A stretch of DNA of 64,000 nt from Escherichia coli (GTDB taxonomy: Bacteria > Pseudomonadota > Gammaproteobacteria > Enterobacterales > Enterobacteriaceae). Shown here one piece after another: positions 21,001 to 27,000 of the stretch (positions are counted from its first letter, which is position 1; each line of letters begins with the position of its first letter). Made by a program: the position numbers. The stretch lies in the NCBI RefSeq assembly GCF_017348835.2, contig NZ_CP072315.1; one strand, 5' to 3'.

Positions 21001-24000
21001 GATACATTTATGGAAAACGCTGTTAATCTCAGCCAAAAATAAAAAATAAACCTCACTAGTGAGAGGTTTTATAAACCTGAGCCACCAATCTAATTAACTC
21101 TATATTTTTGTTTTAGCTTTTTTAAAGATAGACTTACCGAATAAAACAGCAATTATAGAGCAAAGGCCTGGCGTTAGGACAAAAGCTAATAATGCACTGC
21201 CAAAACTTGTCATTTCAGGCACCAGGAACCAGCTGATAGGCCACGTCAGGGCTGGTAAATTTAGCGGATCATAAAGCGCATGTAGAGCGCTTAACACACA
21301 GTAAAGTGCTAAAAAGCAAACTAGATAAACAACGATCCACATTTTAATTTGCTCAGCAATTTCAAATTTTGGACTGCCCATGCTTTACCTCAGTGGCTGA
21401 ATATTGATGGTTAATATCTTTAATCACCCGTAAGCACTTAGTGCATACCTTAGTTCGATTTGTCTGCTTGTCCAGAGTGTATTTAACTTCAAGTTGACCT
21501 CCAGCATTAAGCAAAGTGAGCATCTCATCTTCTAACACGCTTCGGTAAATGGTCTTGGCCGAGAGTGTGCCCGGTAACGAGTACTCAACATAATTGTTTG
21601 AAACTCTTACCGATTTAGGGATTTTACCACTGAGCTGGGTTTCATTCGTTGAAGGCATTACAGTTACTTTAATCACAGTTGCCGGTGACCAGAAATCCTG
21701 ATAACGCACTTTATGAATTTTATCAGCTCTAAGGCCTAACCACACATTTCCGGCGATAAGAACAATAAGCAATCCATAAACTGATCGTCGAATGTTACGC
21801 CTTTTAATCACAATGTCCCCCATCCCTCAAATATCATTCTAAATAACTGCACCAGGATATCATGAGCGTAATTAATAGAATTCTTCATAACCGGGGTTTT
21901 CAGTTGAGTTTGCGGACTCTTTACTTTGCGGTTTCTCACCCTCTAGTTGAGTATCCCTGACAGGCTTGGATTTACCCATGCTCCTCTGAAAGGTATCCAT
22001 AACAAACTCAATATCTTCTTCTGGCAGGCTGGTGGGTTGGTTGCTCATAGGACTTCCTCTTGTTGAATACGTTCGGCGTACAGGATGCGAACCGAAACGG
22101 TCGTGTTTTCAAACTCGTTCTCAAAAACGTCCATCCATTCCGTCCGGAATTCTTCCCCCAAAAGGTTATCGAGCCCCTGAAGAGATAATGGAAGAACGGC
22201 TGCTAGAGATCCCCCGGCTGCGAGATGAGATGCAGCTGCCTGGAGATGCAGCCTGGCCCGGTTATCGGCAAAAGGTGGGTTCATCACGACATAATCAAAC
22301 TTCTTCTGTTGATTAGACTTAGACCATGTGAGGAAGTCAGCTTCTGTCGTATCGTATCCCTTAGCCCGGGAGATAAGGCAATTCAAAGTATCAAGCTCGA
22401 TGCCAGTAACGATCACACCGGCAGGGAATGATTTAAGCAAATCCGCATGGCCAATATTAGGCTCCAGGAGGGTATCCCCTTCCCCTGCACCAAGCAGGGA
22501 AGATACATATTCGCTGATTCGGCAAGATGAAGGGTAAAACTGATGCGATACAATATCAGGCATCTCCCCTATCTGGCCGATGTAACGAATAACCTCACAC
22601 GGATCATAGGAAAATGTCACATCGTATTTTGTTACTGTTGCCCCTAAGAACCGAAGGGTGTCAGCGGCAACACTCGAAGATTTGCGTTCGGCGAGAGACC
22701 CTAAAGATGTCCAGCAACTCCATTTATTGTCCCCGTCATTTTTAAACATCAGTTCAGAAAGCTGCATCCGGGTATCAAAGTCGATGCACTGCTTAAGTAC
22801 AGGGAATGCCTCCAAAGATTTCTTGCTATGAGCCATACGGTCGGCAGGTAATGCCAGCGGTACGATAGCTGATAAAATATTGTTAAGCCGCTCGGCGATA
22901 TCAGGGTGGACGTCAATATGCATTGATCCATTTTTGTAAACCCTGAAACGAATACTGTTGCCATCGATGCAGATCCATTTTCTGAACCCCTCATGTTCGA
23001 CCAACGCCTCAACCAATGATTTGGTGTTATGGATCGCCTTCACCTGTTCGCCACGGAAGAATGCGCATATAACGCGGAGCTCGCTCAGCGGTGAAATGCC
23101 AGACTCTTTAAAATCCACCCTTAATTTCTGCCAGGGGTATTTAGACGGCTCGCAAACTCCGGTAGTGATCATGCGGGTGGAGAACCCAAAAGCTTTGTTT
23201 GTCTTGTGACTGCGGCTCAGAGACTGGAAGACGTCGTAAACCCTTTCTTTAATAAATTGATTGCGGTCATTAAGCAAAGCAACGACTGTGCCCACTACAG
23301 CGTCAGCTGTGAAATCAGGGATCACCTGAGGCGGCATAATATAACGGTCGGCCGTAAACTGCTTATCCCATTCGTTACGTTTGGCATCCGACATGATAGG
23401 CAAAACATCAGTGAGTGCCATAACGCATTTCCAGTATTCTGATCTCAGAGCGTTTTCTGCGAACAAAGCATCCGCTTCTGAGATGCTGTGGTTGTAGCCT
23501 GAGAGATAAGAATAAAGTTTCTGGTGATTGTGGGTTTTGAACTGGACAGCCATGAGTTTCAACAAGCAGAGTTCATCATTATAGGACTCAACAAGATCCG
23601 CGATAATGCCGAGCTCTTTGCGCATATCTGGAAGAAATGTTTCAGGAGAGCTAACCACCAGGCTATGAGAGGTTGTTAAAGCCAGTACGCTGTGACCTGC
23701 ATTATCGGGTTTAGCTTCAGAATCAAGAGATGACATTTTACCGGTCCTTTAGAAAAAACTTTTACCAGGATAGCAACGTCGCTCAGTAACCTAATAGGTT
23801 CAGTGACACGAAAAAGTTTTTTATGTCTCTGAATAAAACTTAAAGATGTCAACTCATAGAAAGAAGCAAAAAAAAAGCCCCGCATAAACGGGGCAAGAAC
23901 GATACATGGAGGTTTAAAAAAGGCGGGCAAAAAGCCTGAATCCTTAATGACTCTGACAAAACCAGCACTTTGCCAAAAGTAAATTATTCTGCGTCCGGCT

Positions 24001-27000
24001 GTGGGTCAGTATCCTGATCGGTCTCTTCCCCTGCCTTCTTAGCATTTTTTTTACGTGGGTATTTTGGCTTCTCACCATTAAGTTTTGCCTGACGATTCTC
24101 CGCACGGCGAAGCTGCTTGTTCTCTGATTCTGTGATCTCTTTTGAAAGATTTCTCAACATCTCCAGAGTACTGCGGTTCAACGTAATGTTGATTTCTTCG
24201 TCAGCACTTGAATCTGTCAGCTCCGGCAATTCAATATCCCCCAGTTTCTGTAATAAGCTGGTGGTGATGAGTTTGACGCCTTCTACGGCTTTTGTGGCAA
24301 TAACCGGCGGAATCCGTGCTGGCTTGAAGTCTGAAGGTCTGACTCGTACCTGACCATGTTGGGTTTTTTTCACCGTGATGCCATTCGCATCGGCCTGCTC
24401 AAGTTCTGCGATCATCTTCTTGATACGTGAAATTGCTTCTGTTTCGCCGAGCTCATCGATCAGTGAAAGCACGTTAACATACGAAATAGCGTCAGCATGA
24501 ATCCATTTCTTGATAACAACAGAACAGGTTGTCAGGCGGATAAGAGAACTGATGGTCGTCGGGCTTTTATTTTCACGTTGAGCAATTCGTTCGAGTGACC
24601 AGCCAGCAAGAGAATGTAGGCGACGATAGGACTCGCCAAGCGCAACAGGAGAAAGCGCAAGACCACGGTTACCATCAATGGTCGCGAGCTCACAGCCAAT
24701 TTCATCTTCTTTAATCTCAACGCAAAGGATTGTGATGTCATGATCTTCATCACATGCCATCATTGCGGCTTTTAAACGGCAGTGCCCCTGGCGAACAAAA
24801 GGTACCCCATCAATGACACGTACTCGGATAGGGTCTACATAGTCACCTCGAATGTAGGCATTCTTGATGTTGTAGATGTGTTCTTCAACCTCAGGGAGCT
24901 TATAGTAATCGTCACCCATTCCCATTTCGCGGGAGTTGAAGCCTGGCGTGACCTGAATTACTGAAGGGTGGATAGCCCATGCTTTCTGGTCACTTACTTC
25001 AGTACAAAGTTCAGGGTTTGCATCACGGAACTGTTTAAGCCCAGTGACGTAACGGCCTGTGCCAGTAACTACTGAAAAGGCAACATGGGCCGTTTTAAAG
25101 ACCTTGTCATTAGCTTGCTGTGTAGGTTCTGTCAGTAAAACACTCATAGGGGCTCCGTTACATTTTTCTGCTTACTTTCTGCGTAGCGGGGATACTACCG
25201 AAAAAAAAATTCATAATTTTTCGCAAAAAAGGTACTTTTTGAGCCTATTCTGATTTTTTACAAAAAAAGGTGGCTCCCCATTACTTGTGATGGCATAAAA
25301 ATCGCTTCATAAACAAATACATAAATCCAAAACATAAAGTTCAGGTATAAGTGAGGAAAAATCTTATAAATCCGAAATGCTGAAAGTCAAAACTGTGCGT
25401 CTTAAACAACTTTTTTTTGCTCCCTAAGTTATTAGTTAAAGCCCGTGGTTAGGTACGATACCAGCACCTAAATTTCTCTCTCAGGTATAGACACTTTGAC
25501 TCGACATCTCAGACACATGCCGATAATCAAATGGGCTGGTGGAAAAACGAAACTGATGCCTTTCATCAGCCATCACTACCCACACGATCATAGTTGCCGG
25601 TGGGTAGAACCCTTTATAGGCGGTGGTGCCGTTTTTCTGAACATGTTTGCACAAAATGCATTGCTTGCAGATAGCAATCCAGACTTGATCAACCTATACA
25701 GGACTATTCAAAGACAGAAAACTAACTTTATAAATCAGGTCCAAAACTTGGCGGATAAAACCTTTGTCGAAAAGGACTACTATGAGATGAGGGACCGTTT
25801 CAACAAAACCTGTATTTCTGGTCAATCGCTTCAAAGAGCGGCTTTGTTTTACTCCCTGAATCGCCTGGGCTATAACGGTATGTGCCGCTATAACTCAGAA
25901 AGAATCTATTCAGTGCCGTGGGGGAAACATACAGAACTGAAGCTTGACCTCAATAAAATAGACTACCTTTCATTTCGTCTTTCAGGTATTGAACTGATCA
26001 CCGCTGGTTTTGAGGAGACTCTGGCCGCAACCGGTGAAGGAGATCAGATTTACTGTGATCCGCCATATGACAAAACAAGCAAAACTAGTTTTGTCAGTTA
26101 CGATGGTAAACCGTTCAGCCAAAGCGACCACGTGCTGTTAGCAAATATGCTCGTTGACGCTCACAGAAAAGGCGCTGCTGTTGCGATATCAAATAGCCTG
26201 ACATCATTCACTTTGGGCCTCGATGAAGAGCGTGGATTCGTCATACACAGACTCAGCGCTTACCGATCCGTAGGAAGTAAGCCGAATACACGGAAAACGG
26301 AAACAGAAATACTGGCCGTGCTGAAATAGAGTAAATTCTAATCAACTAGGCTAATCCATTCCTCAAAAGTTAATACCTCAGGGTAAGTTCGTTGAACATA
26401 AGGTATAAACTGAAGCTCTTCTATTCTCCGGTCGCCCCTCTTTCCTTCGCAAATAAATGAAATGAGTCCTTGCTGAGAAAGGCCAGTAAGGACGCTCATA
26501 AGTCTTATATTTAGACTTTTAAGCTGTAAGTCGTTATTAATGTCCTCCACTTTATGAGAGCTCTGGCCTGAACGTTTAAGATACTCGTAAACCATGAAAT
26601 TCGAATTTCGTCGTTTTAACAATTTTTCGGTTATGCATTCCTGAATGAAGTCGCCAAGAGCATCTAAAAGCGGACTGAGAACTACCGGGAAAGTTAATGT
26701 GTAACTTTGAGAAGTTTTAGACAAAGTGAATGAGTTTAGAAAGCTAAAGTTTAGTCTCTTTTTTGAATATGGAACATAAGCGACAAGAGTAGTCGACATA
26801 ACAGTAAGTAAAGCTTCAAGATGGTTCACTGTTATTAAAGTGGTTTTATCTGTATTTCTAAGATTATGGAAATCAATAAACGCTACTCTTGAACGGCTAA
26901 GCCAATCTTGTACTTTAATGTCGATAGAAAATTGCGAGATATGATTTGAACATTCATTTTGGGTGATAGGGCATGCAGACGAAAGATGGTTATGGATTAT

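Follow-up and report, generated by a model that had tools for sequence, protein, structure and literature searches.

An orphan ParB-like protein of the IncHI plasmid backbone and a conserved variant of a dispersed palindrome upstream of its gene

Plasmids of the IncHI1, IncHI2 and IncHI1B groups are major carriers of multidrug, colistin (mcr-1) and carbapenem resistance, and the temperature-dependent transfer of IncHI plasmids is understood only in part. The stretch of DNA analysed here (64,000 nucleotides of contig NZ_CP072315.1, Escherichia coli assembly GCF_017348835.2; hereafter the window) is IncHI2 plasmid backbone and contains RepHI2, a second RepB/TrfA-like replicon, Tra2 transfer genes, Par1 (ParA/ParB), Par2 (ParM), htdA and rsp. 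Our subjects are one of its genes, ParB-like1 (Table 1), so far labelled only ‘DNA-binding’, ‘hypothetical’ or, in plasmid R27, ‘partition protein’, and a short palindrome dispersed over the same backbone. The region around the gene (23800–25500) is found at an identity of at least 95% in 1,107 plasmids from Escherichia, Salmonella, Enterobacter, Klebsiella and other hosts, and those records among them that were inspected are typed as IncHI2A, MOBH, MPF_F. The window is collinear with the Salmonella plasmid pD90-1, apart from one insertion in each. A segment of ~1.7 kb with raised G+C (12298–13978) is missing from pD90-1, and pD90-1 carries an IS3-family insertion at the point equivalent to window position 30937.

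The open reading frame of 387 codons described in a sequence-only reading of the window is present, with the patch RQGHCRLKAA at residues 119–128. The gene is flanked by methyltransferase genes, a divergent Dam gene on one side and a DUF4942 gene on the other; with a terminator-like hairpin between it and the downstream DUF4942 gene, it is probably monocistronic. No ParA, KorA- or IncC-like gene was found to adjoin it among the neighbouring genes; the same reading had called the protein an orphan, and it does lack an adjacent ParA.

Profile comparisons and a predicted structure identify ParB-like1 as a genuine member of the ParB superfamily, with an N-terminal nucleoside-triphosphate (NTP)-fold domain and a ParB-type helix-turn-helix (HTH). 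Pfam matches only HTH_ParB (PF17762) in the protein itself, at 22.7 bits against a cut-off of 22.6; the same domain is matched by 53 of 57 diverse family members (best expect value (E) 2.6e-13) and PF02195 by one of the 57, and PHROG 1033, ‘ParB-like partition protein’, matches residues 51–371 (E 3e-28). The family comprises 660 cluster representatives in an exhaustive search with a cut-off of E ≤1e-3. When a profile built from the 57 diverse members was compared against the PDB, it matched ParB of M. xanthus, Thermus, B. subtilis and Caulobacter as well as Noc (E 1e-14 to 5e-18), and also KorB (E 3e-9). The AlphaFold2 model of ParB-like1 (predicted local distance difference test (pLDDT) 89; predicted template modelling score (pTM) 0.77) has Noc (top, 7ng0, E 2.8e-7), ParB and KorB as its best Foldseek matches, the highest template modelling (TM)-score among the PDB matches being 0.58–0.59, for the KorB–KorA complex 8qa9. 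The profile matches (E ~5e-18) and those of the model to Noc, ParB and KorB bear out the ParB/sulfiredoxin (Srx)-type N-terminal domain that had been proposed. The presence of HTH_ParB and of a long helical C-terminal region sets the protein apart from the ParB-like nuclease/sulfiredoxin-type class, in which a ParB/Srx domain occurs without the ParB HTH. The KorB domain PF08535 has no match in ParB-like1 and weak matches in 10 of the 57 family members; the LG(R/K)GL ParA-stimulating motif of type Ia partition ParBs is absent from ParB-like1, and the ortholog alignment reveals a conserved xGR(Y/F/L)(V/I) segment in its N-terminus. In architecture, ParB-like1 is a typical representative of a familiar class.

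The nucleotide pocket is where it departs from the canon. Only four residues are invariant over the 57 family members, all of them in the nucleotide pocket: N71 and R73 in Box I (GFNxR), and G121 and R124 in Box II (GxxR). The profile alignment pairs ‘vrdGhcRlrA’ of the family with ‘iiaGerRwrA’ of ParB/Noc, placing GHCR opposite GERR. Instead of the canonical Box II, GERRxRA, ParB-like1 has QGHCRLKA (Glu replaced by His, the first Arg by Cys; family consensus DGHCRxRA), and of the canonical Box III, ENLQR, with its Mg2+/catalytic Glu, only the Asn is retained (IDGNRGLALSP; family consensus TSNxGL), so that the catalytic Glu is lost. GxxR is the minimal P motif, and orphan ParBs are often without Box III (PMC12704722); this minimal motif is present in ParB-like1 as G121-H-C-R124. 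The earlier description of an altered arginine patch holds insofar as RQGHCRLKAA differs from the canonical sequence, but the pocket is not disabled: the minimal GxxR is retained. Because G121 and R124 are invariant and DGHCRxRA is the consensus of the family, the patch is a family signature and not decay. The nucleotide-binding pocket of ParB-like1 is probably retained; that hydrolysis would proceed by the canonical mechanism is doubtful. Nucleotide specificity is not predictable from sequence or AlphaFold3 (PMC12704722).

A paralogue in the window, ParB-like2, shares 30% identity with ParB-like1 over 174 residues (E 4e-22) and has RQGHTRFHGL at the patch, as had been read; it lacks the N-terminal ~50 residues of ParB-like1, and no dispersed palindrome was found upstream of its gene. 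In IncHI1B plasmids the single family match is the ParB-like1 orthologue, ParB-like2 being absent. The Par1 ParB (46612–47616) has IEGSRRRF at the aligned Box II position, without significant overall pairwise similarity to ParB-like1, and is of the P1 type, with the P1 ParB C-terminal domain (PF08775) and an adjacent ParA. ParB-like1 and ParB-like2 do belong to a subfamily distinct from the Par1 ParB (GSRRRF), as the sequence-only reading had held; this subfamily is large and is marked by a DGHCR-type Box II. Directly upstream of Par1 parA, a 249-bp unit is repeated in tandem 10.5 times (42404–44982); this array is probably the Par1 centromere or an incompatibility region. In IncHI1B plasmids the palindrome ACAACNNNGTTGT occurs 15 times, mostly at the same place as this array.

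Orthologues of ParB-like1 are spread over IncHI-like plasmids with decreasing identity: 81% in a Photorhabdus tasmaniensis plasmid, about 72–75% in IncHI1, 63% in Buttiauxella, 46–47% in Photorhabdus heterorhabditis and an uncultured Buttiauxella, and 35% in IncHI1B (pNDM-MAR type). A related-locus search with a narrow alignment returned only 12 loci, all IncHI-like. IncC plasmids carry an orphan ‘ParB’ that is ~30% identical, and virulent phages such as 9NA encode shorter relatives. In phage 9NA the family member is gp81 (254 residues), and another 13-bp palindrome, AACACNNNGTGTT, occurs in four copies against 0.06 expected, at 12891, 12960, 49721 and 49837; these form two pairs, one of them ~1.5 kb from gp81, which is suggestive only.

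In R27 (IncHI1) the orthologue lies at 45191–46348. Gene order, counted from trhA (R0034) and repHIA (R0036), leads us to infer that it is R0042, which Gibert et al. list as ‘partition protein’ (PMC7366339). The R0042 microarray signal is among the highest of R27, at 6132 at 25 °C versus 2278 at 37 °C, and expression also goes up in log phase and when htdA is mutated, conditions that, like 25 °C, favour transfer (PMC7366339).

The dispersed palindrome has the 13-mer consensus AAAAGTNACTTTT, with 10 exact copies in the window, and an 11-bp core, AAAGTNACTTT, with 19 copies against 0.14 expected. The core is intact in 16 of the 18 window hits with at most one mismatch. An extended consensus, gAAAAGTWACTTTTc, is common to all plasmid groups. 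In pD90-1 (222 kb, IncHI2) there are 36 core sites, with none between 80 and 75,147, where resistance genes and insertion sequence (IS) elements lie; R27 (180 kb) has 46, 22 of which are intergenic as against 20% non-coding sequence (binomial p 3e-5). Nine of the 19 core sites in the window are intergenic, and another four are no more than 75 nt from a gene boundary. The density on the backbone is ~1 per 4–5 kb, with about half of the sites intergenic. The same core is found in IncHI1, IncHI2, IncHI1B, Photorhabdus, Buttiauxella and metagenomic IncHI-like plasmids. Positions upstream of trhA, upstream of immunoglobulin-like (Ig-like) genes and at the traK/htdO junction are conserved over deep lineages, and that ~70 nt inside the 5′ end of the hypothetical gene 26338–27171 (codons KVTF) is kept in four lineages. 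In IncHI1B, 9 of the 11 sites of a 17-kb locus fall within ~5 kb around the ParB-like1 orthologue, and there are clusters of 4–5 palindromes in 350–470 bp. We found no mention in the searchable literature of such a 13-bp palindrome (36–46 copies, on the backbone, absent from the acquired resistance region).

Several other repeats resemble the dispersed palindrome or contain part of it. The trhA–repHI1A interval of IncHI1 (R27 38881–38979) has three AAAAGGCACTTTT repeats at 43-bp spacing, and in a Buttiauxella plasmid the Rep3 gene is preceded by 4–5 perfect AAAAGTACTTTT palindromes spaced 62 bp apart (locus 2473–2792); both arrays resemble the dispersed palindrome. Around oriT of R27, in the H–R intergenic region (108150–108906), at least six copies of AAAAGTGACCCTATG / CATAGGGTCACTTTT in both orientations contain the 9-mer AAAAGTGAC common to the dispersed palindrome; these copies are flanked by two perfect core sites. 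Scanning metagenomes for paired core sites gave at least 120 loci, among them four IncHI-like contigs; the other contigs have tandem arrays (periods 13–65 bp) with the AAAGTNACTTT core near pta, dnaJ-like and other housekeeping genes, probably a coincidence in a very large database. These arrays are unrelated to the IncHI sites, and the scan was a dead end.

Upstream of ParB-like1, positions 25227–25239 of the plus strand read AAAAGGTACTTTT, which matches AAAAGTNACTTTT at 12 of 13 positions, 80–92 bp from the ATG, just as the sequence-only reading had located it. This is one of the two window hits that break the otherwise invariant core, with G for T at position 6. Core-breaking 12/13 matches are expected by chance at ~0.4 per 64 kb, which makes the match on its own weak evidence; the expectation for a given 150-bp stretch is ~0.001. 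What makes the site convincing is its conservation in orthologous promoters. An alignment of the upstream regions from five plasmids (IncHI2, IncHI1, Photorhabdus, Pantoea and Pseudocitrobacter) contains only two conserved blocks, ...GGAATArrCyCAAAAAGTAyCTTTTT and a T-tract followed by CGGTAGTAT; the palindrome block is kept as AAAAGTAYCTTTT, whereas the flanking intergenic DNA has diverged. The variant AAAAGTACCTTTT (AAAAGTATCTTTT in one IncHI1 plasmid) stands 86–91 bp upstream of the aligned start in all of them, R27 and a Buttiauxella plasmid included. Within the second block, TAGTAT at 25197–25192 is a possible −10 element. More distant orthologues (35–47% identity) have a perfect core site in the same intergenic region: about 111–113 bp upstream in IncHI1B, ~125 bp upstream in the uncultured Buttiauxella plasmid, directly upstream in P. 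heterorhabditis and ~300–370 bp upstream in two metagenomic plasmids.

A conserved A/T-tract promoter element, acting like an UP element or through DNA curvature and resembling the palindrome by chance, could produce a 12/13 match at which no protein binds; the break in the core, the chance rate for the window as a whole and the A5 and T6 runs of the site in an AT-rich promoter region would all fit such an element. The five plasmids, however, keep the 13-mer over its whole length, central GTA(C/T)C included, while the flanks are not conserved, and neither the perfect sites of the distant orthologues nor the low expectation for a single 150-bp stretch is readily explained in this way, so that we consider a chance resemblance very improbable. 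Rather, the conservation of the site upstream of the gene across lineages, and its perfection in distant orthologues, mark ParB-like1, on comparative grounds, as a conserved member of the palindrome’s regulon, and the site in its own promoter region as functional-looking. The IncHI1/IncHI2 clade has fixed a sub-consensus form, as would be expected of a set-point operator, which is not proof of one.

ParB-like1 itself is the best candidate for the protein that reads the dispersed palindromes, on a circumstantial case to which we give close to an even chance. Its orthologue is the only family member present in every motif-bearing IncHI-like lineage sampled, the gene is highly expressed, the sites of IncHI1B are densest around it, and dispersed short palindromes are, by analogy with KorB, Noc and the IncC ParB, a signature of ParB-family readers. 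Our leading explanation, held tentatively and with slightly less than even confidence, is therefore that an orphan ParB/KorB/Noc-type protein of the IncHI backbone reads the palindromes and regulates its neighbours and itself. Dimers of ParB-like1 would recognize the 13-bp palindromes scattered on the backbone, possibly loading at them as a nucleotide-gated clamp and then sliding. Much as KorB does on RK2 or VirB on pINV, they would modulate transcription of the operons nearby, which include tra, Ig-like protein and maintenance genes. Through the weaker site, centred 86 bp before the start of its own gene, the protein would exert feedback on its own level; such autoregulation is plausible and depends on ParB-like1 being the reader. 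The direction of control might be KorB-like repression, VirB-like relief of H-NS silencing or DNA organization of the IncC ParB kind.

A number of observations weigh against this explanation. The recognition helix diverges between lineages with an identical core motif (SPTTISSLIRL in IncHI2 versus SEMAVRQIISL in IncHI1B), and the core is the same in all IncHI-like lineages found, at protein identities of 35–100%, which leaves no change in the motif to set against change in the protein. In KorB, however, specificity is reportedly set outside the HTH (Khare et al. 2004), and in ParB-like1 two residues downstream of the HTH, K213 and S222, are invariant in six aligned orthologues. TrhR and HtdA are likewise present in all motif lineages, including IncHI1B at ~30% identity, and because they share the phyletic distribution of ParB-like1, presence and absence do not discriminate between candidate readers; a Klebsiella plasmid that retains no more than a remnant of trhR is uninformative on this point. 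Many IncHI backbone proteins are without a known fold, and the IncC orphan homologue has no AAAGTNACTTT motif upstream or nearby. The promoter scan found no canonical sigma-70 −35/−10 pair that could be placed with confidence around 25192–25216. About half of the palindromes lie inside genes, and no fixed offset of the palindromes to −10/−35-like hexamers was found when looked for, which makes a simple operator model incomplete. Finally, truncated alleles and IS insertions in natural plasmids indicate that the gene is probably dispensable for maintenance: N- or C-terminal truncations are frequent among database alleles, and IS903B, ISVsa5, IS1203 and ISApl1 interrupt the region 23800–25500 in several IncHI2 plasmids.

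Some of these points would be accommodated if ParB-like1 were a target and another factor of the IncHI backbone, such as the TrhR/TrhY pair or an uncharacterized protein, bound the palindrome; the relationship would then be cross-regulation and not autoregulation, and ParB-like1 would bind some other sequence or act non-specifically. That a global circuit centred on TrhR/TrhY/HtdA exists follows from the de-repression of 139 of the 181 expressed R27 genes, R0042 among them, in an htdA mutant (PMC7366339), and sites are present before trhA as well as in the H/R-oriT region of R27; the ubiquity of TrhR and HtdA and the constancy of the motif against a diverging recognition helix also fit. Yet TrhR and TrhY have no Pfam or NCBIfam match and no recognizable DNA-binding domain. 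The R27 F and Z promoters are reported to be TrhR/TrhY-dependent and the R promoter independent (PMC7366339), but in promoter regions inferred from gene positions it is the R region that has a site, whereas F and Z have none within one mismatch. HtdA is predicted to adopt a protein-binding fold (below), and dispersed short palindromes are typical of ParB-family readers. On balance, a different reader seems unlikely, if well short of implausible.

Of four specific candidates, ParB-like2 is disfavoured, being absent from IncHI1B and without an upstream site, and the other three were rejected. The Par1 ParB is of the P1 type with its own 249-bp × 10.5 repeat array. For the Rep initiator of the adjacent RepB/TrfA-like replicon, the iterons have a different sequence, AAAAGCATTTGAATGAATG; these iteron-like repeats occur in both orientations at 29752–29838 and 30903–31487, on either side of the rep gene (29890–30765), and have only AAAAG in common with the dispersed palindrome. 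HtdA (52813–53265), the IncHI transfer repressor, was rejected on its predicted type III secretion system (T3SS)-chaperone/YbjN-like fold: its AlphaFold2 model (pLDDT 84) has the order alpha-beta-beta-beta-alpha-beta-beta-alpha and matches STM2138, YbjN, SycE, CesT and ExsC in Foldseek (E 1e-3 to 1e-2, TM ~0.5). The model suggests a protein-binding anti-activator and not a DNA binder; the published view is that HtdA acts on TrhR/TrhY at the protein level (PMC7366339). Two further proteins have features of note. TrhY (R27 9710–10222) ends in CxxC-(17)-CxxC, a possible zinc ribbon that might parallel activators of the FlhC/AcaC type. The product of htdK (53689–54243) has a weak Pfam match, just under the cut-off, to the Whirly family of single-stranded-DNA-binding transcription factors (E 1.2e-4).

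Even with ParB-like1 as the reader, the role of the sites could be physical: parS-like loading sites that serve to compact, position or segregate a 200–300-kb plasmid, possibly via the Par1 ParA. The half of the sites in genes or at junctions, without fixed promoter geometry, the IncHI1B clusters and the high expression of R0042 would suit such a role, for which the scattered parS of IncC plasmids provide a precedent (PMC10954446), and the N-terminal xGR(Y/F/L)(V/I) segment may loosely recall ParA-stimulating peptides such as IGRTL of P1 (PMC12704722). No ParA gene adjoins ParB-like1, however, and the canonical LG(R/K)GL motif is absent; partition in IncHI plasmids is already served by two full systems, of which one possesses a repeat array, and truncated ParB-like1 alleles persist in nature. 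The intergenic enrichment of the palindromes (p 3e-5), moreover, points to a link with transcription. A purely physical role is thus improbable in our estimate.

Regulation through the palindromes by ParB-like1 can be taken further, to a model in which ParB-like1 (R0042) would be the DNA-binding hub of IncHI control: a non-canonical (GHCR) nucleotide-gated clamp at ~40 palindromes that, once its level has gone up at low temperature or after HtdA is lost, counters H-NS/Hha silencing as VirB does. We give this model only a small chance; if true, it would account for the plasmid-wide temperature-dependent de-repression in the R27 transcriptomes. If ParB-like1 does read the sites, IncHI plasmids would possess a global circuit of the KorB/VirB kind, and the GHCR-pocket family, with its 660 cluster representatives and members in virulent phages, would offer a testable non-canonical ParB nucleotide switch.

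The methyltransferase genes on either side of ParB-like1 encode a DUF4942 protein with an N6-methyltransferase domain (22045–23736; PHROG 6263, E 1e-111) and a Dam-family protein (25496–26329). Both are orphans, and the gene order around ParB-like1 is the same in IncHI1, Buttiauxella and metagenomic relatives; in IncC, too, the homologue has a methyltransferase gene ~1 kb away. A defence-system role for the ParB-like proteins was considered and rejected, as a PADLOC search gave no match for ParB-like1 or its paralogue.

Table 1 Coordinates of ParB-like1, its paralogue, the associated promoter-region and terminator-like elements, and the 11-bp core palindromes in the window.
Feature	Position	Strand	Description
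ParB-like1 coding sequence	23984–25147	-	387 residues, ATG start
ParB-like1 domain layout			conserved N-terminal segment ~1–50; ParB/Srx-type NTP-fold ~55–160; HTH_ParB 165–230; helical C-terminal region; acidic/basic tail
ParB-like1 NTP-fold boxes			Box I GFNSRE; Box II QGHCRLKA
ParB-like2 paralogue	28358–29413	-	351 residues; Box II QGHTRFHG
Sub-consensus palindrome	25225–25240	.	AAAAAGTACCTTTTTT on - strand; centre 86 bp upstream of ATG
Second conserved promoter-region block	25192–25216	-	T9 tract, then CGGTAGTAT
Intrinsic-terminator-like hairpin (GCCCCG..CGGGGC + T9)	23877–23894	-	90 nt past ParB-like1 stop codon
Core palindrome AAAGTAACTTT	596–606	.	intergenic, 176 bp upstream of gene 48–425 (-)
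Core palindrome	4765–4775	.	inside Ig-like gene 3274–5664
Core palindrome	9585–9595	.	inside Ig-like gene 9285–11705
Core palindrome	11809–11819	.	intergenic
Core palindrome	20200–20210	.	divergent promoter region, Ig-like gene 17587–20043 (-) / gene 20416 (+)
Core palindrome	20265–20275	.	same divergent region as the 20200–20210 site, 65 bp away
Core palindrome	27092–27102	.	74 nt inside annotated 5′ end of hypothetical gene 26338–27171
Core palindrome	30876–30886	.	just downstream of RepB/TrfA-like rep gene
Core palindrome	31661–31671	.	248 bp upstream of trhA (pilin operon)
Core palindrome	34714–34724	.	traK/htdO junction; position kept in IncHI1B and Photorhabdus plasmid
Core palindrome	37023–37033	.	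95 bp upstream of htdT
Core palindrome	48440–48450	.	inside gene 48064–48585
Core palindrome	50514–50524	.	divergent region, operon ending 50358 (-) / parM (50722, +)
Core palindrome	53480–53490	.	inside htdF
Core palindrome	53674–53684	.	htdF/htdK junction
Core palindrome	55323–55333	.	inside rsp
Core palindrome	57567–57577	.	inside rsp
Core palindrome	58750–58760	.	190 bp upstream of trhF
Core palindrome	61114–61124	.	19 nt inside annotated trhU start

Among characterized systems, KorB of the IncP-1 plasmid RK2 shares with ParB-like1 the ParB-family NTP-fold N-terminal domain and the HTH. KorB reads a 13-bp odd palindrome, TTTAGCSGCTAAA, present in ~12 copies on the RK2 backbone, near and far from promoters and including its own operon (see McLean et al. 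2025, as cited in PMC12704722). On the IncHI backbone palindromes are dispersed with a variant in the promoter region of ParB-like1, which is a candidate for their reader. KorB differs in having the canonical GERR Box II, in being a proven cytidine triphosphate (CTP)-hydrolysing clamp, in also acting in partition, as the ParB partner of the IncC ParA, and in cooperating with KorA; by contrast, ParB-like1 has a GHCR Box II, has lost Box III and has no ParA or KorA partner nearby, and its palindrome binding is only predicted here.

The IncC/IncA plasmids are related MOBH/MPF_F conjugative plasmids, and the IncC ParB, a KorB-domain protein, binds 14 inverted repeats scattered over the conserved backbone; promoters of transfer genes contain several of these, and its own promoter contains one (PMC10954446). 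That reader is, however, a partition ParB encoded in parA-parB-053, and its sites, 22 bp long, have a core of 14 bp. What resembles ParB-like1 in IncC (30% identity) is a separate orphan gene and not the IncC reader. VirB of Shigella pINV is, like ParB-like1, an orphan ParB-like protein; it is a nucleotide-dependent DNA binder with sites upstream of promoters, controlling many operons on an AT-rich, H-NS-silenced and temperature-regulated plasmid (PMC10770331). VirB is a relative of the P1 ParB/SopB type that binds CTP, and it is an anti-silencer at 37 °C, traits that in ParB-like1 would be conjectural; IncHI transfer is permissive at 25 °C. Noc, the top Foldseek match, is an orphan ParB paralogue that reads ~70 dispersed palindromes; unlike ParB-like1, it is chromosomal, retains the canonical GERR, targets the membrane through its N-terminus and takes part in cell division. 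The P1-type Par1 ParB, finally, belongs to the same superfamily and is encoded on the same plasmid as ParB-like1, but is distinguished by GSRRRF, PF08775, an adjacent ParA and the 249-bp repeat array upstream.

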